Of a DNA stretch of 64,000 bases, positions 15,075 through 64,000 are shown in pieces. This stretch comes from Lytechinus pictus (Eukaryota). Made by a program: the position numbers and the translations under genes. The stretch covers positions 8,124,001 to 8,188,000 of the forward strand of contig NC_087245.1 of assembly GCF_037042905.1 (NCBI RefSeq), written 5' to 3'. Positions within the stretch are counted from its first letter, which is position 1. Each line of letters begins with the position of its first letter. The notes beneath the pieces were generated by a model. It made no database searches, was not told the DNA's origin, and saw only the letters and a program-made list of their open reading frames with translations.

Positions 15075-15611
15075 AGGTTAAGTCCATCCCAGAAAAATGT
15101 TGATTTGAATAAATAGAGAAAAATCAAACTAGCATAATGCTGAAAACTTCATCAAAATCGGATGTAAAAAAAGAAAGTTATGACATTTTTAGAATTTTGC
15201 TTATTTTTCACAAAACAGTGATATGCACAATTCAGCGACATGTTTTTTATTGTTTGAATTATACAATATTTAATTTTTAACATTTTTGACAATATGGACC
15301 AACTTGACTGAACCATATAGTATTAAATAATGTTAATTCCACATGTTCAGGGAGGTATTAATCGTTGTTTCACTTGACAATGGGGAGAAAATTGGAACAA
15401 TACATATTTCATATAAAAAAAAAAATAGTGAGTGGATAACGTCATCAGTCTCCTCATTTGCAGACCCACCACGATGTGCATATAACTGTTTTGTGAAATT
15501 AAGCAAAACTTTAAAATGTGATAACTTTCTTATTTTTACATCCGATTTTGAAGAAATTTTCAGTGTTATTCTTTTTATTCAAATCAACTTTTTGTTGGGG
15601 TGGACTTGTCC
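15075..15611. mobile_element. Kolobok-type MITE
   Basis: TTAA|AGGTTAAGTCCATCCC ... GGGGTGGACTTGTCC, with long imperfect TIRs (CATCAAAATCGGATG / CATCCGATTTTGAAG). The right TSD is lost where the next element abuts. Confidence 0.75.
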
Positions 15612-17463: not shown

Positions 17464-41430
<23,967 letters not shown>

Positions 41431-48093: not shown

Positions 48094-48499
48094 CGTATAG
48101 TGAACTAGCGTTTTATAGATCGCGATTTAAAACTGTTTTTTAAGCAAAATTGAAAGTTTCATGGTTTCCATTATCAGGGAAATATAAATAACTTAAAGGG
48201 GAATCCAACCCTGGTATTTCTGTATCATTTTCAAATGAAGAGTTTGATTCTGATTAATTTGATACCAAATTTATCCGAATCGGTTAAGCGAAACTGGAGT
48301 TATTGAAAGATTACGAACCCCAAAGTAGGTCTTTCAATTATCGTCTGCTGCTCATGCAAGTCGCCATTTCTAGTAGACCCCCAGCGAAGGTATGACGTAT
48401 GGCACGGACATCTTCGATCGCGAGCGCTGGCCTGGAGAGATCCGTCGCGCGCTAGCAGACGCTATTTCTATAGGTTCAGTGTGCAATTTACCGAGCAAG

Positions 48500-51400
48500 A
48501 TGGTGTTTTGCCAGGCCTACGGCTGCAACAACAGAACTGGAAAAAAGTGTGGAGGGAAATCTTTCCACCGATTTCCCAATCCCAAAACTAGACCGGACGT
48601 TTTCAAGAAATGGGCAGCAGCAGTGAAAGTAGAGAAATTTCTGCTAAAAAGCTACAAATGGACTCCAAATGACCAGATATGTAGCGATCATTTTGTGGAG
48701 TCCGACTACGAAGTCGATCTTCGTGCAAAATTGATGGGGACCAAACCGCGGGTTCTTCTAAAAGAAGACGCTGTTCCGTCGGTATTTTCATTTTCATCTT
48801 CATCGGGACCTTCGACATCATCAAGAGATGAGCGATCAGCTCAAGCAAGTTGTAAAGAGGTATGTTTTTCCCGTCTTTATTCCAAAAAGTACATGTTTTG
48901 TAGCTTGTTTGTGAAAAGTGAGTGCCATGGCCACGTGAGTTTTGCTTTGATTGCGTGTGTACAAATACGTCTTGTGGCGTAGTCTCTGCACATGCAGACC
49001 GCTGTTTGTTTGTTGATGTGAATGTCTCGCGATAAAACATCTATTTGTGATTTGATTTCACTTGTAAATTATGATAGTAAAAAAGGGTTACTGATGACGA
49101 TGAAAAGATCATGTAGCTGCCCCGACTTCTTTATTCAAATTGGTATGTTTCTTTAGATCTAGACCGCGCTTTGCTTGCACTTTTTGCAGCCATCGATCTA
49201 TTCTGACGACCGTGGTGGTGTTCCCTTGGACTTGCCATTCCCCATGACTAGCAGCCGCAGCCTTAGCTGCTGCATGCCTCGAATGTTCAGTGCGCTGTGC
49301 TCTCCCCCGACAGTATATGGCCATGATTCAGGGGCGGATCTAGGATTTGTCAAAGGGGGGGGGGGTGGGAAAAACGACAAGGGAAAAAAGAGGATTGGAA
49401 AATTTGGGGGGATTCTGTTTTATACTGTTATTTTTAATAGCGTTTTTACATTACAAATTTTAATTGTGCCTCTCAAAGGGCGGGGGGGGGGGGGCACGGG
49501 AAAGCTGTGCCCCCCTGGATCTGCCAGTGCCATGATGTGTGTGAAAGTCACAGTCCTACTTTTTTATTGTTTTGAAATTCGAAGGCTGCTAATTTTGCTA
49601 ACACTAACGCTACTACGGTACATGATTTGTATGACCTTCTTTCTTGGTATCATGTTTCCATTGGATTGGGCAGGCTAGAGGCAGTGTTGGAGACAGACAG
49701 TGCGTGTGCAAGGTCCTGTTTATCATAATATAGGAAAACAAAAAGTTTGAAAATAGAGTCTATCAGTTTTGACTTTGTTCTTGACTGATCAATTTTCCAT
49801 TGTGAGTGCTGTAGCCCCTGAATTAATCCACTTTGTTTGCTAATGCAGTTTATTTACAGATTAGCTTATCCTGGACCTGGTAGTGGTAGCTAAAGATTTT
49901 TGGTCTTTTTCTTTGCTCTTTTATTTTTATTCAATCATAAAAAACTTAGACTTAATTCATTATCATCTAGTCTTTAACCAAACGGCAAACGCCTGTTATT
50001 TTATTTATTTATTATTTACTTTGGAAGGTGGTTGGACTTTTTACACTAATATTTCATGCTTCCCATTGATGAATGCTGCCTAGTGGCAATGTCTTGTAAA
50101 GTGTGTGAATTGTAAAAAGCATTTGGACTAAGTTTATTTGGACCTGTATGTGAAGTGTTTTCAGGAAAACAAAGAAGTTTAATATTGATTTATCTCATTT
50201 GAATAAAACTCCTTTATATCGGAGGCACTCATAAGACATTTGGTACATTCATACTAATTTAAAAACCAAGCAATGAAAACAGCATAAAAACATCAATCCT
50301 TTTATAGACAGGGGTGTTTTAAAAAGAATGCTGTTCAAACAAAAAAAAGGCCTACTAGTTTTGGCATTGTTCTTGACTGGCGAACTGTCCATTGTGAGGG
50401 CTGAGGCTCCTGAATTAATCCACTTTGCTGCTTATACACATGAGCTTACCTTGGTAATCTAGATTATGGGTCTTTTGCTTTGCTTTGCTTTTTCTTAGAT
50501 TTATTAACATCTTAAAATTTTAGTCTAAAAAAATCATTGTATGAGGGTGGAGATGGCAAGGTCATCAGAGTATTTTCCCTCATTTATTTTTCTGTCAATT
50601 TTTGATACATGGAACTAACCAACTATGGCATTCTTTAATACCTGTACCTGATTGAATCATTTACTGATATATTTATTTGCAGTATCTTCGAACTGTTCTT
50701 GGAGAACGTCCTAGTGATCAAGGCGGTAAAGGCACACCTAAGACTGATAATGAATCCAATCATCCATGTACATCAACTTCTGATGATGTAAGCAAGCTTT
50801 CAATTTTCTTCCAACACTAGTGACAGATACTCAGAGAAACTACTTTCTAAAATTGCAATTCTTTTTTTGCCCATCATGTATAAGCACTACACAAAGTTGT
50901 CCTACAAATCAAGTAAAGTTTGTCCTATAGATCTTTGTAAACTGATTGTTTGATTGTCATTTTACCGATAAAGAATCAGAATGTGAGCACTTGTCAATTA
51001 GAAAATATTATGAAGTTATGCATTTATGTTAATTAATTCTGGTATTGGGGTAATTGGAACAATTCTGCTTGTGCTTAATGGTTGCAAATCATTTAGACAT
51101 TGTGTTGAGTGTATATATGGACTGCATTGTTTGCCATGACTTTAAATCAAAGCACTGTATGTACTTTCAAAATTATAAAGTTCAAGTCCTTGTATAGAAA
51201 CAAAAAGTTTATATTAAATGGTTGGAACTTGGAAGCAAACCTTGTGTGCTACCATACAGCGCTGGTTAATGATAATAAAATATTTCAGGCTTGCTTGAAA
51301 TTATAGTCAATACAGTAGCACGTATGTGCTTTTCTAGGTATAGCTAACAGAGGAAACAACATTTAGGACCAAACTATAAATAGACCGGCATTTTGCAATC

Positions 51401-54400
51401 TTCAATTGCTTATTACTCTTTAATTTCCTGAAAAATTGTTTGATATATATATTTGAAATTCTTTATAATTTTTTTTCAATTCTGTGAAATTTTACTTTCT
51501 TTTATGAGGTCTATACATGTTTGTCATGTAAAAATATCTTGGTAGATCTTTATTTTTCATTTCATTAACCACCAGCGTATATCAAGGACATCAAGTGAAA
51601 TGATTTCATGTGTTATATTGTACTACAGCTTGTTTTAAAATAGGGCTCTAGTATACAAAGTCATATTAGAATGCAGTTTACAAGACAGAAGAGTAGTTTT
51701 GGGGAGAAATATGAAATTAGAAGGAAAAAAACAAATGAATTCATTTGTGGTTTCTCCGCACATTTTTTTAAAAAACAAACTTAACATTTTGACTTACTAG
51801 ATATTCATTCACGTGTTAGGTTGTGATGAAGTAAAATAATACTCTGTCCATTTTTTGTTTTGTTTTTCTATACCTTATTTCTTAAAACTATTTCGTCCTC
51901 ACTTGCATTTCATTGTCACAAAACAATCTCTTTTCAGAAGTGTCAATTTGATTATCATGTTGTATCATTGCAAATTCACTATTACAGTCGGTGTTACCAA
52001 TGGAAGGAATTGAATCTGGTGGAGATGCTCCAAATGAAGAGACAACACAAAGCAGTAGTCAGGTATGTTTTCATTTTCGTCTCACCTGAACGAAGTTTGC
52101 CAGAGGCCCAGTGATCACTTTTTCTGTTGGTCTGTTACAAAAATGTTAAAGTTTTTGTTCAACTTGCTCTTGTTTCTTTATTTTTGCATCAATTATATTC
52201 ATAGTTTGCTTAAATGATCATTCAGTAATTGTGTGCTCATGAGAATAATGGGTCAGGGTCAAAGGCCATCTAGGGGGTCAAAAGGTTAACTTTTGTTCAA
52301 CTGATCCTTTGGTATTACCATGGAGCTATTAAACACAGATATAATAACAGATATAATAGCTCTATGGTATTACCACATATGTGTTCAGGAGGAAGAGGAG
52401 GTCAAAGGTCATCTATGGTTTTAAAAATCTAGTTGCAAATTTTTTCATTGATCGTGAAATCAGGGGAGAGTCTTGGTTCACAAACCTATTTAATAATGCA
52501 TAATTGCTGTGCAAGTAGTATGTCTTTTTTAGATGCATATATCAGAAAACGATCCATATATGCCCAAGAAGGGCTGTGAAGAGGCCTCATCAAGCAGTTC
52601 TTGGCTACTCGAAATAATTGAAACGGGCTTGACCTAGGTCACTAGTCATATCAGTTCTTTTGTCGAAAGCCACTACCTACTGGTTATTTCCATGTAGAAT
52701 AACTGACTAGTAAAAAAGAAATAATTAAAAATGAGGTCACTTTCAAAAAATTCCTGTTGCCCCTTGTAGAATTTTTAGCTCAGTAATGTTCTCATCCGTG
52801 TGTCTTGACTTTTAATACCATAATAGTGATTGATAAATATTTTTTTGTTTTGTTTCTAAAACAGTCGTTTCTACCAATTGAGGAGACAGTTTCAGATGGA
52901 GATGTACAGCCGAAACCAGAGACTCCACAGAGTTACTATCAAGTAAGAAGATCTGTTAATTCAACTCTTGTTTAACTTAAATAGTTCTAACATAAAAGAT
53001 CCATGGGAATCTTAGGTAAAGTATAAAAAAAAGGCATGCAGAATAATTGCATTCTCCATCAATGCTTCAATAGGAATGGATGATGTTAAAGTTCACTCAT
53101 GGATTTCATTATCTGACATTGTAAACACTTTTTTCAGTGACTCATATCTGTACTGCAAAACTTATTAGAGTACCAGTAAAAACAAGTTTAAATAGTTGAG
53201 TGCCAAAATATGAAAACATATTGAAAAAATATCACCCGAGACATTTCTTTGTTTATCACTTCACAGGGATCAGCTACTGGATTGACTACAGGTACTGAGC
53301 CAACACCTAAAAGGAGGAAAGGAAGTCGCAAAAGGAAAAGGAGTTCATCTAAGAAGGTATATTTCCATAGTAAACCTTTTTCATCAGTTATACTCTGTAA
53401 AGGGGAATCCATTTTTTTGGCCATAAGATTTTCTGTGAGAAGAGAGAGAGAAAAAAGAATGAGGAAAGTTTATGGGAAAAAAAAAACAGACAAGCAATAG
53501 CGAGATCATGGCTGATTTTAATGTTAGTTTCAAACTTAATAAGAGTATTACTACTAGAAGTGGTGGGGACAACTTTCATATAGACCATGTGCTCAATTAT
53601 CAGGGATTTGTGTTTTTTTCCTAAGTATGGCTGAGTATAGAGGTAGCATATTGTCCAATGTCATGGAAAGATATAATTTTAAGCAAAAATTATTGGAGAA
53701 AATGTTTTAACCATTATATTTATTAGACTAATTAAAAGACTTTTTTGTTTCCCTACATCACTGTAACCTCATCAATGTGGCAAATTAAAAAAATCATAAC
53801 TATCATTGTTTGTCAATTATTTCAAAAACTTATTTAATTATCTAATGTTTCCATTTCTCCTAAAAACAACTTTCTTTATTTAGGCTGAAATTCCCTTTAT
53901 ATGTAATGTTTTGTTGATCTTAATATGAGCTTGGGATCCTCTATTCATTAAAGTCTTTGATAATCTATTTTAGAATCAACCATTATTATATAGGTGAGGT
54001 AGAATTGGACTTGACAGCTGGGCTAAAGCTGGGTTAATGATTAAGCACAAAGAACATTGCATCATAATGCAATATATACATCATACAAAAATGTATTATT
54101 TCATTCTTTTTTGCAAATTATTCAAATACCATACCAAGGTCTGTAGGTTGGAGGTTACCGGTAATTGAATTGAAACAAAAATTGTTTTTTTTTCTCTTAT
54201 GTGAGACTCCCTTGCTATACTTATTAAATTTGTTATCATTTGTTGGGACTTTTATTCTTGTAAAACCTAATTTCTTAATACCCCTCATGTTTTTATCCAG
54301 AGGCAGAAATGCGTTGCAACATCTAACGCAACTACACAGACACTGTCATCTGGTCCACAACCAATGGAGGAGAAGATGTGTCAATGTCCGGATGATTTTT

Positions 54401-56262
54401 CCCATGTACGAAAGGACCATACTTATGCAGAAAGCTACCCTCGCATTCTAAAACCGGCCTTTGTGATGGTAGAGGTAGCGGAAGAGTCCCAAGCTTCAGA
54501 TTATGGAGGTGACTCTAGTCAGTCAGATAGTACTTCCCCTCAGCCTATACCTGATCTTACTGGACAAGATGAGTTCATGGTAGATACTTCTTCAACTGTG
54601 CCTACACCTGGTGTAACCATGCCAGATGACCCATGTCCTTCACCTGTATCATCTCAACATTCAGATTCATCCTCATCTTCGACTACAAGCTCTGTACCAA
54701 CATCTCCTTCACGTGGTGGACAGTCGTCTGACTCGTATAAACCATCTGATGAGTCGGATTCATCATCTTCAGAGGAAGAAAGAGAGCCTGATGAAATGAG
54801 ATACTGCATGGGGAAGAAATATGTGGTCTTTGATGAACAACTTAATGATCTGTTTTATAGACTTAAGTGTAAATCTTGTTCTGATGGCCACATTGCAGAA
54901 CTGAAAAAGTATACTGTAGGTACCATGCTGGTTGTTAATGTACTATGTGTGTGTGGTTCTCTTGTATACAGGTGGCAATCTCAACCAACCATTGGCAGGC
55001 AACCAGTTGGGAATCTATTGCTTTCTGCCTCCATCATGTTCACAGGCAAGACATATGAAGACTTCAAAGTACTGGCGGATCTTTTTAACCTACAGTTCAT
55101 GTCAGACACCACCTTCTATGACATCCACAACAAGATCCTCCTTCCTGTCATCCACACATTCTATACACAAGACGCCCATGAAGAACATAAGAATCGACCA
55201 CTCTCTATCTGTGGTGATGGGAGATGCGATTCACCAGGATACAATGCAAAATATTGCACTTACACGTGTATTGACCTTCAGTCAAATAAAATAATGGGCA
55301 TGTCGCTAGTTCATGTTAGCGAAGCAACAAGTTCCGTTGCCATGGAGAAAGTAGGTTGTAGGCGGGTATTAGACTTTCTTCTAGCATCATTGGATGTCAG
55401 TGTGTTTGCTACTGATCGGCATGCAAGCATTGCCAAAATGATGCGTGAGGTATTCCCCCAAGTGTGCCATCAATATGACATTTGGCATGTCACAAAATCA
55501 ATAAAGAAGAAACTCATCGAAAAGGCAAAACAAAAGGACAACGAAGTCCTGTGGCCTTGGACAAGGTCTATCACAAATCACCTGTGGTGGTCTACAGAAA
55601 ACTGTGATGAAGACGAAGTCATGCTGCGGGAGATGATCCAGTCAGTAACACACCACATCACTGACATCCATTCCTGGAATTCAGCTGAAAAGTTCCATGA
55701 ATGCGAACACGAGGAATTGACTCCAGAGGAAACAGAAGAAACAAAGTGGCTGGAACCAGGGTCAAAACCTCATGAAGCTGTCCAGAGTATCGTCTTCAAT
55801 CAACGATTAATGAAGGACACAAAGCAGATGACGAAGGCCTGCCATACTGGTGCGATAGAGTCCTATCATTCATTGTATCTCAAGTACTGCCCGAAACGCA
55901 AACACTTCTTCTACCCTGCCATGTTGGCCAGAGCAGAACTGGCAGTTCTTGACCATAACGCTAATACTGGCAGAGAGCAGGCAACCGTGAAGAGAGAAAG
56001 AACTGGAACTGCAAAGAAAGGGGCACTACGCTTTCGGTATGTGTGGTCAAAGTCCACCAAAGAGTGGGTTCTGAAGCGCATCCCAGAGGACAAGAACTAT
56101 GCATACCTTTGGGATATGCTTGTTGCAGTTCTACAAGTCAAGGCTGGTAACTTTGACCTTAAACAGCCGCAGTATCCAATCCTTCCTCAGAACATTGCAC
56201 CAATTCCACGTCCACCTCCTGAAGAACTCATAGAGCGGGCTACATCACGATTCAGCCATTGA
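48500..56262 (+). CDS. THAP-domain DDE transposase (Kolobok type), 6 exons, ~889 aa
   Basis: Exons 48500-48859, 50683-50787, 51988-52062, 52865-52942, 53267-53356, 54301-56262; all GT-AG, all phase 0, no stops. Exon 1 is a THAP domain (MVFCQAYGC..SFHRFP..W..ICSDHF..LKEDAVPSVF). The last exon has CKSC/CVCG Zn-ribbon pairs and catalytic-type motifs ICGDGRCDSPG, FATDRHASI, HQYDIWH, HTGAIESYHS..KYCPKR. The small internal exons are less certain than exons 1 and 6. Confidence 0.88.
49329..49529. mobile_element. hAT-like MITE in transposase intron 1
   Basis: CAGGGGCGGATCTAGG ... CCTGGATCTGCCAGTG with TSD CCATGATT/CCATGATG. Confidence 0.7.
52319..52366. mobile_element. 48-bp minimal P-like MITE in transposase intron 3
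   Basis: CATGGAGCTATTA ... TAATAGCTCTATG with 7-bp TSD GTATTAC. Confidence 0.65.
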
Positions 56263-59200
56263 TATCATGGACTTCAGGATGATACAATAATGAAGTGTTT
56301 CCAGCTTTCTATCAACCTACTTTATTAGATGACAAATGACAGTCTTTCATTCTTTTGACTTCGTGAGGCGAGTGATCGTTTACACATTTGCATGCTATTT
56401 GCACGTATGTCAGTTGCACACGTATCGGTGGAATTATGTAATATAGACATTTGATGAATCATACCAAATGAAAATGATATTCATCAACGAAACTGTTACT
56501 ATAGCAATATTGTGTTTTCCTACATTGCAGGAAACAGAAAGTAATCAACAGCTCATTAAGAACTTGAATATGACAAGACATTTCTAGTCTCGCCTTCATC
56601 TCTAGTGTTAAAAAAATGAATATACTTTTTAATTATACTTGTATTGATGTAAACAAAGCTTGTTTTGTTTGCCTAAGAAAGTGTATGCATTTTTTTGATA
56701 AAATAGAACTTCACTTTATATTACTATGATGTATTGCAATATTGAGGTGAAAAGTTAAATATAGTGTCCTGCTGGGTCTCAAAAATTAAACCTTAAGCCA
56801 AATGTCAGAAGAGAGAGAGAAAGAAAAAAAACATACAGTAGGCTTTCATCTTGATCGTGTATATCATACATTCATCTGTTCTATGTGAAAATAAATGCGA
56901 GATGGTTGAATCTAGATTTTCCACATGTATGCATTTCTTGACATTTTTTGAAATTACAATATTCAGCAGAATATGGTGACATTTGAGGACCACTTCCTGA
57001 TCACATCTTTATGTGGTGGTAAGGAATAGGTGGAAAAAAATTAGATTTATTTTCTAGCAAATCTAAAGGTCAAGTACTTGTATTTGTGAATCTGTAAAAT
57101 ACCAACAATGTACCAACAAACACTGTTTGTAAATTGATGTAACAAGGCAATGGGTCATCCCAGATGTTTCATGCATATTTTTTTCTCACCAGCACTGCAT
57201 GACTTTTGGTAGCTTCTTTCCGTCTTTATGATAATTTTTTTAATCAGATGATAAACCACATTTTGTTTTCGGAGATTACATATACTCAAACACACGATTT
57301 CTTGCACAATTATTGCTTTGGCATTAATTTATGATTAAAAACAATTATCCTGGACTTTTCTATGCTGAAGAAAATTGAACAGCTAATTTCTTTGCAAAAC
57401 AAATTGAAATACATCAGAAATAAAATTGATTTCAAAGACTTGTTTTCTTCATGGAATTTAAAGCATCATTTAGGGAATTAAAGCAAAATTTGAATTATTC
57501 ATAAAGTAAGAATAATATATTGTTGGCTGATTACATCATCTGTGTGAACTGTCTTTTGACGACCAAGGTCTCATGGGGGAGGGGGTGTTGAATGTGCCTT
57601 AAGGGAAACCTCAAAGGCACATCATGACTGTTTTTACCCTTCTATCTTTTGGAATGGTAGAATGGGATCAGGTTTAAATCCTATAAAGTACTCATGATTT
57701 CTTTAGGGGCTAGAGAGGAAGAAGGTTATACATTTTTTTGTATATACATGATCACATATTGTAGATACGTTGAGGAACGATACTGATTTAGAGTCACAAG
57801 TTAAGATTGGTCTCCAAATGAAATTGTTTCTCATTGGAAGCAGTCGCTGGATTAAAGCACTTTCACATTTGTTAAATATTTTTTAGACTTGATTCTGAGA
57901 ATACACATGTTTAGTGTATAATTAAACAGTTTGTTTTGACTTATACCTTTGAGATATAAGTGCAAGCAGAGTGAAGATGTTAGTCATTCAATGTGTGTTG
58001 CTTATCAAATTTATTATTTGTTTGTATATAAAATATTTACATGTTTTATTGATAGGGAGGAGATATTTTAATGACATCTATTAGCATAACTGGTCATTAA
58101 TTTGATACCTGGTATTCGTTTTTTGATAAAAATCAGACTCACATTGTCTGAGCATTTGCTTTGTATGTATTCCCTGAAGATATAAATGTACATGTAAATG
58201 GTGGTTTTATAGGGGATGGGCTGTGAGGGTCACATGACTCATTATCTGACCTTAATTTTATCCGTCTTGGAATTATGTTTCAACATTTTTCTTTCTGTAG
58301 TTTCCAGATGACAGGCATTGATGCACTTCAAAATAGTGCATTCTATCTGAGGTTCAGAGTTCCATTGCAGCATATGAAATGATATGTAAACAACTTTGTG
58401 GATAAAAGCATTAAATTATATCTGTTAATTAATTAACTGAATTGACATTATACATTTGTGATCTGTCATGGCAATCTTCATACGAGGGGGGAGGGGGTAG
58501 TCTATAATCTAGGCGGCGTCTTCAGTATTTTTCTTTGCCTCTTATGTACCCCAGTCTGGTACTTTTTCTCAAAATGTCAGTAAGATGCAGAAGACTATGC
58601 AAAGCAGCTGCAATGTAGCCACCTTTGAAGCCACTGTGCACAGTCTTCCATGTCACAAATATTGCTCATGTTGGTGTAGTTGTAAATATATACCTGCAGC
58701 CGTCCGCCACCTACATTATAGGATATGTGGTGGGGGAGTGTTATTTCAGAGGGGAAAAGAGGTAGCAGCATACATACAAATACACACATGCAGAGAGAGG
58801 GGGGAAGGGCCATATAAATGGATAGAGAGCAGAGAGAAGTTTGTGAGATTGAGAGGAGAAAGCAGTGACGAAAGTGAGATGAAAAGTGTGGTTTGATAGG
58901 GGAAAAATATTAATTTTTGAATAGTCTTTGTATACATCAACCTTTGATAAGTAGACAAAAACAAGCTTTTTCATCATCAGCTCTCCATAACATCTTGTAA
59001 TAAGGAAGCTTGTATGGAAAAGAAAAAATAACTGAATGTTTGAGATTAATTAGGCAAGTAGTCATGAACACATGAATATTGAAATCACCTATGATTTGGA
59101 GACACCCTCCCCCTTCCCCCTATTGGCAAGCAACCAAGAATTGTGATGTCACAGAAGCCTATTTGTACAGTGAAATATACACCAAGGCATCTGTTTCTGT

Positions 59201-59461
59201 TCATTCTAATGATACAACAAACTTTTGGTTGTATGTTATATGAAAATTCCATAACATCTTTTCATGGAAAAAGAAGAAGTCATGTTCTATGGATAGTCTT
59301 TTTAAGAATTAGAATTTAGAAAATGTGAGTAGAAAAGAAATTGGGAGTGACAAGTAGATAATGTACATGTTGGTCGAAATGTAAATGGGAGGATGTCCAC
59401 ATAAGTTATCTCAATATTCAAGTGCCTATAACTTTCATCGTATTTGTTTAATTTTGTTTAA

Positions 59462-59950
59462 AGGGCAAGTCCACCCCAACAAAAACTTGATTTGAATAAA
59501 AAGAAAAATTCAACAAGCATAACACTGAAAAATTCATCAAAATCGGATGTAAAATAAGACAGTTGTGACATTTAAACTTTCACTTCATTTCACAAAACAG
59601 TTATATGCACATCTCGGGTCAGTATGCAAATGAGGGAACTGATGACATCACTCACTCACTATTTTGTATTTTATTACATGAAATATGAAATATTTTGATT
59701 TTCTCGTCATTGTCATGTGAAATGAAGTTTCATTCCTCCCTGAACACGTGTAATTCCATATTTTAACATTTTGTGGTTTAATTCAAAAATTTAAATATTG
59801 TATAATTCAAACAATAAAAAACAAAAGAAATGGTGAGTGAGTGACATCGTCGACTCTCATTTGGATGTAACTGGCTTGTTCATATAACTATTTTGATAAA
59901 AATAAGCGAAACTTTGAAATGTCATAACTTTCTTATTTTACATCCTATCT
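59462..59950. mobile_element. Kolobok-type MITE (right-truncated) inside the autonomous Kolobok
   Basis: TTAA|AGGGCAAGTCCACCCCAACAAAAACTTGATTTGAATAAA..CATCAAAATCGGATG; same family as 15075-15611. Confidence 0.75.
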
Positions 59951-60119
59951 TTAATTGATTTGCTTCTTTTTTTGTGTGTTTTTAAAGATTCCATTCTCCT
60001 TAATGTCAAATTTGAAATTTTAGTCCAAAGTTGGGATTTGACTTTGGCAGATTCGCTTGTACTCCTTTCTCTCATGTTCTTACATGTATCACTCTTATTC
60101 CATACCATCAATTCTCCTT

Positions 60120-60340
60120 TCATGTCCATCCCTCATTGTGCTACCCTTTTCTACACTTTCCTCCCAGCCCCCCCCCCCTAGTCTTTACTTCACATCCATC
60201 CCTCATTGTTCTTCCCCTTTCCACACTCTTTCATACATCTTTCCTCCCCCTCTCTTTACTTCATATTCATCCCTCATTGTTCTAGCCCTTTCTACACTCT
60301 GTAATATCTCTTTCCTCCCCCTCTCTTTACTTCTGTCTCC
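60120..60340. repeat. Pyrimidine-rich tandem repeat, ~70-bp unit x3
   Basis: CATCCCTCATTGT..CCCTTT.TACACT recurs at ~60128, ~60197 and ~60268. Confidence 0.7.
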
Positions 60341-61847
60341 CTCCAGCTACATGTATCTCATTAATGTTCATCTCCTACTCCCTCTCATTCGTAAAAGATA
60401 TCCACGACATAGGATAAGGGAAAAGAGAACATGGAATGAGGTATATAAAGGCAAGGCAGTCAATTTGTGCTCAGTAGACTCTCATTCCATAATCTTCATG
60501 TCTATATCATTAACACTACATACATGTATAGTTTGTATACATGACACTTCACACCATTGATATCATGTTTGGATTGAGAATCAGATTTAATATTCACTAT
60601 TTTCTTATAACTGAAAACCAATACAATACATGTAGGTACATGTACAAGTGAAATCATATAAAATGAGATATAAGAATTTCTCATCAGGGAGCTACATGTA
60701 ATATACAGTAATCATCAATTGCAGTTATTTAAGATAGGACCAGACATGAGAATTGTGCAATAAAAAAATAAAAAAATCAGAATCAGGAAAATTTCTGTGA
60801 CTCAATCTTTACTGCAAAACCCATGATTAAACTAAAGAAACAAACCAAAATGAAAATACAGCAACTGTAAATTAAATATAACAGTGGTTATTTAAATGTA
60901 CACCTCAAGCTTGAGAAAGTCCAGCATTATCAAAGGAAAAATGCCTTGTTGGTACTGTTTAGAAAAGTTGCCTCATAGTTTCACTTTTTACAAATAATTT
61001 CATACCTTAAAATGTAAAGCCATACTTAATATATCATACTTTTTTTAAAGCATGTTGTTCTTTGAATCTAATAAATTAACCGATTGACAGATAAGTGAAG
61101 GATGAACAGTGTTATTACTTCTGTACAAGTCTCATAGATAGATTTATCTCCACACTCGTATTATCTTCAACACTAATTCATGAGTCTGTTCATGTATAAG
61201 ATCATTTATTTTCCAATTAAAATCACTAATGTTTATATTTCATTACAATCACAGGTATGATTTGAAACTTGAAAGTACGCTTCTATATATAAAAAAAAAA
61301 TCTCTTCACGGGTTATACATGTAAGCAATCTTCTGTAATCTGAAAAACAGACAGGCAACATGTGAATGCGACATACATAAATCATAAAATAACATTACTT
61401 CAAAGTTCAATGTCGATGCTTATACATGTACTTAGTAAATATTAACAGTGTAAACAAATTACAGACACATGTGATGGAACCCAGTGTCTCATTTTGTTCT
61501 ACAAAATTTGTACCACGTAGTAGCAGATAGCATTCTTTCAAGTAAAAAGTGAAACAAAACACTAGAAAGTAATAAATATCTACAAATATCCATATTGAAA
61601 GAAAGTGCATGTTTGAACACAGACAGAAATTCTTCACATAAAATATCATTTCTAATGCATTGTATACATGCAGGTACCACCTGAGAAGGGGTGTTTCACA
61701 AAAATGTAAGTCTCAACTTAGGGTTGTACCAAAGTGCACAGTCGCATGTGTAAATAAAGAAATCATTGCATCGATAAAGGAAAAAAAAAATCATGCTACG
61801 GTAAGAGAATATCATGCTACTGTACGTATACGAGTCCATCCACTTTT

Positions 61848-63339
61848 TCAAATCAGAAATTCTTCAGGGACAGGAATATCATCTCCATCATCTCCCTCCT
61901 TGAATCCGATGTAATTTCCATCTGGTTCAGGGAAAGCCTCGCGGATCCGTGTGACAGCACAGGCAGGAATCACCCGACGGACGCCCTTTCCCAGGTAGCC
62001 ATGGACCCAGTAGGTAAATAGCCTGTAGGCTGCGTATCTGTAGGAACTGGAAAAAAGGGGAAGAAAATCATTACTGACATTGATAATGAATTTTAACATC
62101 ACATAACGCAAATGTTAGAAAACACGGTATTGACTTTGCAGTTGTGGGTAGATTACCGTAATCCTCCTAATTATTACATGCATCAATAGCAAGGTAGTAT
62201 TAATTTCTGATGACATATTACATGTACATGTCCCCGGGGGGGGGGGGGGGGTAGGGCCACTTCCATTGACGAGTGGATACCATGCGGGGCCTTGGGTATT
62301 TCCATTAAAATGTCTGAAAATGCACCCCTTGCACCTGTTGGAAACAAAACGATACTCTTTCCAGTCTTGGCAAGTTCCCTGAATTGACCCCCTTAACAAG
62401 TACAGCAATATTTCTATTGTTATTTCACGGCTGTCGGCCTTCGGTTTTACCTTCTCCAACATCATTGGGCTTAATACAGCCCCAACTCTCACATCTCGCT
62501 CAAATCGTATTCTAAACACATACTGTAGTGTTGACTCTCGGTGCAAAAGTACATGATTACATCCTTACATTATTTTTACTAAAAAACTAAGTCTTAAGTT
62601 TTTACACCCTTCCAAATTTGACCCTAACACGAAGCTTTTATAGCAAAAAATAGATACCCTTTTTATAATTTTATGTTTTCGACACCCTTACCAAGCTACG
62701 TACATAACGTGCCCTATCTTGAAAAAGACTTCCTTTTCACATATTTTTGGGGTCGTATCTACTAATCAATGTAGGCCTACATGTAACAAGTGCCCCCCCC
62801 CCCCCCTCGGGTTACATGTATAAAAAATTTTTTTTTTAATGGGTGGGTTCACGTCTGAATGTGTCCCACGTCTTGGCTAGTAGAACATGTATTTTATTGG
62901 AAAGTGGCAAGGTCGCAAAGTCAAAGATATTGTCATTTCATTTCACTTACATGTTATCAAGCACTTCAGGCAAGTTCCTTCGATGCCCTCTTGAATCAAG
63001 TCTGGCGACAAGGGCTGTCCGCAAAACCACCCTCTCCATGCATACTTTCTGAAAGTCCTCGTGTCTCACAATGCAAGTTATCCTTGCATCTAGAAACCGA
63101 TCACAGTTGTCCACTTCATGGCAACAGCGACACTGAATCACTGACGGCATGGGCACACAGCTCCCACACTCACACCAGTCGTTGTTGCCCATTCTATTCG
63201 GAGCTGGTACGGGGTCAGGTCCGGGTGGCGGCTGCACCGGTGGAGCAGCTGCTGCGGCGGCCGCTCGGGCTCGTCGACGAACCATCAGTTCTTCCTCGGT
63301 GTACTTTGGCTGGAAATCGTAGCCACGAGGCCCTTCCAT
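61848..63339 (-). CDS. Stand-alone P2X7 cytoplasmic-ballast-like Cys-rich protein (KolX-type accessory protein), 2 exons, 195 aa
   Basis: Exon 63339-62951 (MEGPRGYDFQP...WCECGSCVPM..CRCCHE..ITCI..HEDFQKVC; GTAAGT donor, phase 2) plus exon 62046-61848 (ttccAG acceptor; SYRYAAYRLFTYWVHGYLGKGVRRVIPACAVTRIREAFPEPDGNYIGFKE). Matches the P2X7 C-terminal pattern WCxCGxC..CC..C..RHCAYR..W..LPSCC..IR.EFP..G.Y.GFK. No transmembrane or ectodomain exons found. Confidence 0.88.
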
Positions 63340-64000
63340 GAGCTTCAATTTCAAGATCACGAAATTAAAACAAGAGTCGAAAACCCGCGATGACGAAAGA
63401 TTTACTCGTAAATGATCAAATAAGTAAATATTTTTTAAAAAAATGAAAGTTCCGAGTGCAATCGAGTACGGTATAGCGTTGAAGACTACGAGCGACAAAG
63501 TGATAAAGCCGTTTCGCGTTTTTCTGAGTGGCCAATCTGAGAATAATCATTCTTATTTTTTTGTTTTTTCATTTTTCTCTTTGATATTGTATTAAAAAAA
63601 ATTTAAAAAATATTAAATGTGTTTAATAAATATTTAAATGCACCTGGCAATTTTTTTTTTTTTTTTGGACAAAAAATACATGTATCAATCATCATGATGG
63701 TGTTCATTTATTGTCCAATGAGAAGACGTCTTTACGTAGTCCGGGCCATACGTCACGAATATCGCTGAGAAGTCAAACAATGGCGGCTTCCATGGGTGAG
63801 AAAAATTGATTCAATTAAATGCAATTTTCTCTGCAATTTGGAATCGGGGAGACATGAACGACATGTCATTAGAAAGGTCAAAGATAGGCCTTTCTTATGA
63901 CGTCGTTTTTTCCCTGCCCTGGATTCCCCTTTAAGTAATTGCATACCTTGGGCCGGAGTTATTGAAAAAAATCCTCTGGATGATTGAGAAATCTGTCATC

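Follow-up and report, generated by a model that had tools for sequence, protein, structure and literature searches.

The 64,000-nucleotide stretch of Lytechinus pictus contig NC_087245.1 that we analyzed (the window) carries a Kolobok element that runs from 48197 to 63930, is flanked by two TTAA target-site duplications (48193 to 48196 and 63931 to 63934), and ends in a perfect 11-nt outer terminal inverted repeat (TIR), AGGGGAATCCA, at 48197 to 48207 on the plus strand and 63920 to 63930 on the minus strand. A joint from 48192 to 63931, carrying one TTAA, was found in four of four runs (31 reads in X21, 15 in X22, and contigs in X1 and X15); thus, the element ends are exact and an empty site exists. 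RNA runs of the window's organism contain the empty site, as do DNA contigs from another organism; the latter also has a related element over nearly the full length, at a depth of ~48. The insertion is polymorphic or recent.

Two genes face each other within the element. The transposase has a first exon encoding a THAP domain (48500 to 48859, plus strand; PF05485, E = 4e-15; GT donor at 48860) and a catalytic open reading frame (ORF) (54271 to 56262, plus strand) with GDG, TDRH, DIWH, and ES motifs. KolX lies on the minus strand, with its first coding exon at 62951 to 63339 (PF20478, E = 5.9e-05; GT donor at 62950) and its last at 61848 to 62069 (PF20478, E = 2.6e-11); it is described as having the P2X7 C-terminal (cytoplasmic ballast) fold (PMC9587614). 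Motif positions in the transposase are GDG 133, TDRH 198, DIWH 220, HECEH 293, and E348, and residues D134, D200, D221, C296, H298, and E348 are invariant among 31 transposase sequences (the window's and 30 of at least 120 matches); their catalytic roles were assigned from the accounts in PMC9587614 and PMC6004289, not by alignment to Repbase entries. The 4-bp TTAA duplication, AG..CT termini (5'-RR/YY-3'), short TIR, THAP domain, and DDE core with C/DxxH and a zinc finger between the second D and E are Kolobok features, bearing out the identity proposed by the sequence-only reading, and a second gene, KolX, with PF20478 on two minus-strand exons, is a feature of Kol0. The element is thus a Kol0-type Kolobok, resembling Kolobok-1_XT as described in PMC9587614 and PMC6004289 (Kol0; TTAA, AG..CT termini, THAP and DDE with DxxH, KolX). 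Membership in KolobokP was rejected because the ends are inverted rather than direct repeats and the accessory gene is KolX rather than a His-Me nuclease.

The closest protein match to the transposase is 99% identical and named Lytechinus pictus. Two substitutions and an insertion of three residues separate the database protein P0001 from the window ORF (54817 to 56259); it represents another copy or allele. At 15.7 kb, the element is longer than complete relatives (3.3 to 5.6 kb) because further high-copy repeats have inserted in its introns, at about 49300 to 49490, 52050 to 52400, 53600, and 62225 to 62820.

Inside each terminus lies a set of short boxes. As the sequence-only reading had reported, the left end has AAGTCGCCATT (48358 to 48368), 24 nt, and TGACGTATGGCACGGAC (48393 to 48409), and the right end, on the minus strand, has AAGCCGCCATT (63789 to 63779), 23 nt, and TGACGTATGGCCCGGAC (63755 to 63739); our recount gave the same left-right identities, 10/11 and 16/17. 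Box 1 likeness widens to 14/16 (CATG-AAG-CGCCATT) through a common 5' extension, so that box 1 occupies 48353 to 48368 (plus strand) and 63779 to 63794 (minus strand). Its YY1-like sites, CGCCATTTC on the left and CGCCATTGT on the right, each match 8/9 of the YY1 consensus CGCCATNTT (PMC7481187), one base off in both cases. The spacer between the boxes has CAGCGA at both ends (48382 to 48387, plus strand; 63762 to 63767, minus strand), a middle box that is GGTCAGCGG-like in relatives. Box 2 (48393 to 48409, plus strand; 63739 to 63755, minus strand) combines a TGACGT core with a family-specific 3' extension and starts 197 nt from the left terminus and 176 nt from the right; inward of it, left-right similarity ends. 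The cAMP response element (CRE) consensus is TGACGTCA, to which TGACGTA at the ends of this element matches 6/8.

The two-ended box motif is real and not due to chance. Across the 64 kb, the 17-mer of box 2 has two matches only at ≤4 mismatches, meaning that there is no copy of it in the outer tip, and the 11-mer of box 1 has two only at ≤1 mismatch. The 17-mer is the top inner ungapped left-right match, with none of 200 shuffles as good; a gapped test in which gaps were lightly penalized discriminated less well (7 of 1,000 shuffles attained the score), and a rough analytic estimate puts the chance of both boxes at ~1e-6. When the ends were aligned by zone, the 80-nt box zone scored z = 7.0 (0/300 shuffles) and the outer 25 nt z = 4.9, and similarity was gone in the stretch from tip to box (z = −0.5; left spacer, 48208 to 48335, plus strand) and in the 80 nt inside the boxes (z = 0.2). 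The earlier description needs one correction, in that the match extends beyond the two boxes.

We looked for the motif in relatives, using the best 80 of 450 confirmed metagenome loci plus 8 loci from genome contigs labelled bacterial, all retrieved with the alignment of the 31 transposases. Ends were called blind to the motif (TTAA-AG-R, then a THAP or KolX start), yielding 23 end clusters; five were removed as internal or flanking TTAA (L001 527, L014 5, L017 1375, L020 4300, and L085 12909), and four ends were added by inspection (L018 left, L082 both, L068 left), for a final set of 22 ends, the window's two among them. TGACGT occurs 157 to 205 nt inside the terminus in 15 of the 22 ends (SD 16, n = 15), and a YY1-like CCAT box followed by TGACGT, in that order, in 12, counts to be read with the caveat that the patterns were set after the ends had been viewed and that the ends are not independent of one another. 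Neither TGACGT nor the pair was found in any of 14 usable outer flanks or in any of the 22 reverse strands; internal stretches gave TGACGT in 1/22 and the pair in 0/22, and shuffling gave means of 0.9 ends with TGACGT and 0.016 with the ordered pair. The motif is conserved in relatives. The invariant TGACGT in alignment A2 reflects row selection and is not evidence.

The reverse search agreed: among 12 distinct box pairs in L001 to L088 and the window, 9 have TTAAAG(G/A) 120 to 175 nt upstream (background, 0.8%), and the remaining three comprise L076, whose pair precedes a THAP gene with no terminus found, and two unrelated repeats. On the transposase tree, a quick version with an open backbone that makes separate groups visible but not the order of gain and loss, carriers with mapped ends sort into four separate groups, and L076 is a further carrier; their transposases share 41 to 46% identity (37% for L076) with that of the window's family. 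The YY1-like and CRE-like cores highlighted in the sequence-only reading are precisely the parts retained across lineages, and only such transcription factor-like cores are common between them: CGCCATNTT is exact in families A, C, and F and at both ends of B, the 9-mer GCCATCTTG lies within box 1 of families A and C and of the left end of B, and the full TGACGTCA occurs in 6 of the 15 ends with the TGACGT core. The 13 nt after TGACGT match at 3.8/13 between clades, versus 9 to 13/13 for left against right within a family. Box 1 lies 134 to 167 nt from the terminus, and the distance from TGACGT to ATG ranges from 54 to 1,130 nt (leaving out an L063 value of 11, a pattern artifact; L082 right gave no call).

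Seven of the 22 ends lack a sense-strand TGACGT (L005, L016, L058, L036, and L068, as well as L022 and L073, which have variants), and these fall into tree groups other than those of the carriers. Families G and H, for which both ends are known, have the outer tip and no inner block; family D lacks box 1. The module is thus not required across the superfamily. A post hoc search of the same zone found another promoter-like motif in six of the seven module-less ends, which we take to be ETS-, FOX-, GC-box-, E-box-, and reverse CRE-like. An ETS-like CGGAAGT lies in the box zone of L073 left, L083 right of KolX, and L016 left, where the YY1/CRE pair is absent.

Loci L081 to L088 (G001 and G002) come from assemblies labelled Dehalococcoidia and Poribacteria and carry complete Kolobok elements of animal type, THAP and KolX genes included; they are probably host-animal DNA in bacterial bins. 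Viral contigs yielded no relative of the transposase. They contained at least 120 loci with CCGCCATCTTG-N22-45-TGACGT, of which 0/120 had TTAAAG(G/A) within 220 nt upstream; we take these pairs as chance occurrences.

Comparison of families suggests how the two-ended block arose. In the youngest-looking families, the ends form a near-perfect ~185-nt inverted repeat: those of L081 are 95 to 100% alike over the first ~160 nt and those of L082 85 to 100%, the spacer itself being 80 to 100% alike in these two relatives, and the likeness stops just past the boxes. Spacer z scores by family fall from 17 and 17 (L081 and L082) through 9.1, 3.7, 2.5, and 1.9 to −0.5 in this element, and the box zone keeps z = 7.0 to 19.9 in seven of nine two-ended families, with similarity ending just inside box 2 (families D, G, and H each pair left and right ends from different contigs). 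This graded series, from a ~185-nt inverted repeat to the window's copy, shows the boxes to be what selection has preserved of the inner end of a longer repeat. The simplest reading is that they mark the inner boundary of an ancestral TIR of ~185 to 215 nt whose middle has decayed and whose tip and inner block have been retained. The sequence-only reading missed that a third, CAGCG, box lies between them and that together they appear to be the inner edge of a formerly long TIR. We conclude from these comparisons that the cis-module is real, has been kept by selection, and is present at the two ends of elements in a considerable portion of the Kol0 lineage.

Gene-less derivatives also bear on the module. 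A nested non-autonomous Kolobok-type element of another family, its right end lost, lies at 59462 to 59950 and has TGACATCA 182 nt and an octamer-like ATGCAAAT 163 nt from its terminus; a second miniature copy, at 15075 to 15611, has TGACGT at 168 nt. This miniature element, of which these are the two window copies, has long inverted arms, and its summed X15 contig depth is in the millions. A search for short TTAA-flanked elements in the loci and the window returned three rows representing two elements: L102, a 1,489-nt derivative that keeps both blocks, and a 627-nt pair without blocks, which may be chance.

Expression from the ends of this element was not seen in two RNA runs of one study, of each of which ~6% was covered: there was no start-site pile-up at the element ends, depth was near zero over the catalytic ORF, and it was <2 over KolX exon 1. 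RNA reads over the THAP exon come from diverged copies, on one strand only, and are probably antisense. In X15, a contig joint from 48373 to 48483, at a depth of 109 (versus ~48 along the element), deletes box 2; one or more copies without box 2 therefore exist. In this deletion form, the stretch is replaced by four letters.

We propose that the boxes serve a dual role, as a host-factor promoter and in end recognition, a reading to which we give roughly even chances. Judging from the consensus sequences, host YY1 would bind box 1 and a CREB/ATF-type bZIP protein would bind TGACGT; the boxes of each end would form an inward-firing promoter, one for the transposase and one for KolX. At ~135 to 205 nt from the cut site, the boxes would also, by analogy with ProtoRAG, help the transposase recognize or pair the ends. 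The cores stay constant while THAP domains diverge between lineages, which points to binding by host proteins of fixed specificity, and the tight distance to the cut site, together with a symmetric, family-specific extension, suggests an end-recognition role. The pairing of YY1 and CRE sites is not confined to Kolobok: unrelated repeats have it too, as would be the case for host motifs. One repeat in the window (25733 to 25755 and 26260 to 26320) has TGACGTCA beside CGCCATTTT-type boxes on both sides, inverted, with no Kolobok termini nearby, and a similar TGACGTCA/CGCCATTTT-type repeat lies in the L036 flank. More tentatively, as a generalization that is possible rather than probable, many Kol0 elements may need YY1 and CREB/ATF about one nucleosome length (134 to 167 nt) inside their ends, both for transcription and for the cutting complex.

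The precedent is the lancelet transposon ProtoRAG. Its TR5 element, GCCATCTTG, is present in both TIRs and bound by YY1, which affects transcription, excision, and end recognition there, and both TIRs have promoter activity (PMC7481187). Like the Kolobok element, ProtoRAG as described there has its two genes tail to tail, and each of its ends drives one of them; several Kolobok families have this 9-mer as box 1. However, ProtoRAG belongs to another superfamily with a 5-bp duplication, and its TR5 lies in the first 43 to 47 bp, whereas the Kolobok box lies 134 to 167 nt in and is paired with CRE-like and CAGCG boxes.

Other explanations of the boxes differ in what they make of the same evidence. 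A chance match of two unrelated ends is vanishingly improbable: the loosest gapped test, in which 7 of 1,000 shuffles attained the score, leaves it some room, but the 0/200 ungapped and 0/300 zone shuffles, together with recurrence in relatives, refute it. The block could instead be a neutral remnant, left from a long TIR or recently copied from end to end, with no present function. That no expression was seen in the RNA runs is consistent with this, and in young families, which are alike over the whole ~185 nt, the symmetry needs no function; yet this zone has persisted in five families that differ in how far the spacer has decayed, and its cores turn up again in lineages with spacers that show no alignment to the window's. 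We consider neutrality very unlikely and already largely refuted. A more serious contender is that the YY1 and CRE elements act as promoters only, driving one gene per end with no part in cutting or pairing, the spacing simply reflecting compact ends. Several observations favor a promoter: the two genes point inward, each requiring a promoter no more than 300 to 600 nt from its end; most of the module-less ends (6/7) hold other promoter-like motifs in the same zone (by post hoc search); families G and H exist without the inner block; and box 2 is deleted in X15. However, the 13-nt stretch that follows TGACGT differs from family to family but is similar at the two ends, which is beyond the needs of a transcription factor core; spacing to the terminus is tight, in contrast to the twenty-fold variation in the distance to ATG; and gene-less elements, represented by two copies of one family, retain a CRE-like box at the same distance. 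A purely promoter role thus seems to us rather doubtful.

We regard as unlikely, and slightly more so, that box 2 and its extension are a site for the THAP-domain transposase in an outer/inner arrangement, with the YY1 and CRE likeness incidental. The THAP-like core (TxxGGCA) named in the sequence-only reading was not upheld: the THAP1 consensus, TxxxGGCA (PMC2879526), is matched at neither end, the left reading GTATGGCA and the right GGCC. GGCA varies even within the window's family, left-end relatives reading GCCA at 48402 (C in 11/11 RNA reads of X21, 5/5 of X22, and all of the X15 depth), which is contrary to an inner THAP site. THAP domains vary in specificity (PMC2879526), so the failed THAP1 match does not exclude binding, and both the family-specific extension common to the two ends and the unequal spacing of box 2 (197 versus 176 nt) favor an inner transposase site. 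Precedents are at hand. P element and Galileo also have THAP transposases and internal, unequally spaced sites at both ends, those of Galileo being family-specific and at +63 to +80 (PMC7776569, PMC3688188), and P element has 11-bp subterminal inverted repeats as well (PMC7776569). Sleeping Beauty TIRs (IR/DR) are ~200 to 230 bp, with important inner and outer sites whose spacing matters (PMC8151067), and the Kolobok ends likewise show a long TIR in which both the outer and the inner part are conserved. Nevertheless, the Sleeping Beauty sites as described are repeats of one transposase site, whereas the Kolobok inner block has host-type cores and is no repeat of the outer tip, which holds no copy of any box. 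In addition, known THAP end sites lie 40 to 80 bp in, as opposed to 160 to 200 for box 2, and Galileo's are not common to families, whereas the Kolobok cores cross lineages; what stays invariant across lineages with very different THAP sequences is the set of host-type cores, and these would not persist in a transposase site that drifts. Our preferred reading remains the dual role for YY1 and CREB/ATF sites.

Published Kolobok ends are short (KolobokP TIRs of 11 to 18 bp and Xenopus termini of 16 nt), and no inner conserved block is described in the portions of PMC9587614 and PMC6004289 that were available. Nor did the literature searched contain a link between Kolobok and YY1 or an account of the cis-requirements of Kolobok ends. 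Relative to that literature, the inner box module is new for Kolobok. It makes ~200 bp, with three named boxes, rather than the tabulated 11 to 16 bp, the candidate for the functional Kolobok end. Should the boxes be promoters only, this would be a tidy but modest addition. If YY1 and CREB/ATF act there, however, the ProtoRAG arrangement would have a second, unrelated instance in Kolobok, and a need of many Kol0 elements for YY1 and CREB/ATF would, if true, represent, together with ProtoRAG, convergent design of two-gene, tail-to-tail transposons. The abundant Kolobok-type miniature elements would then also be a ready source of YY1/CRE-type regulatory sites in animal genomes.
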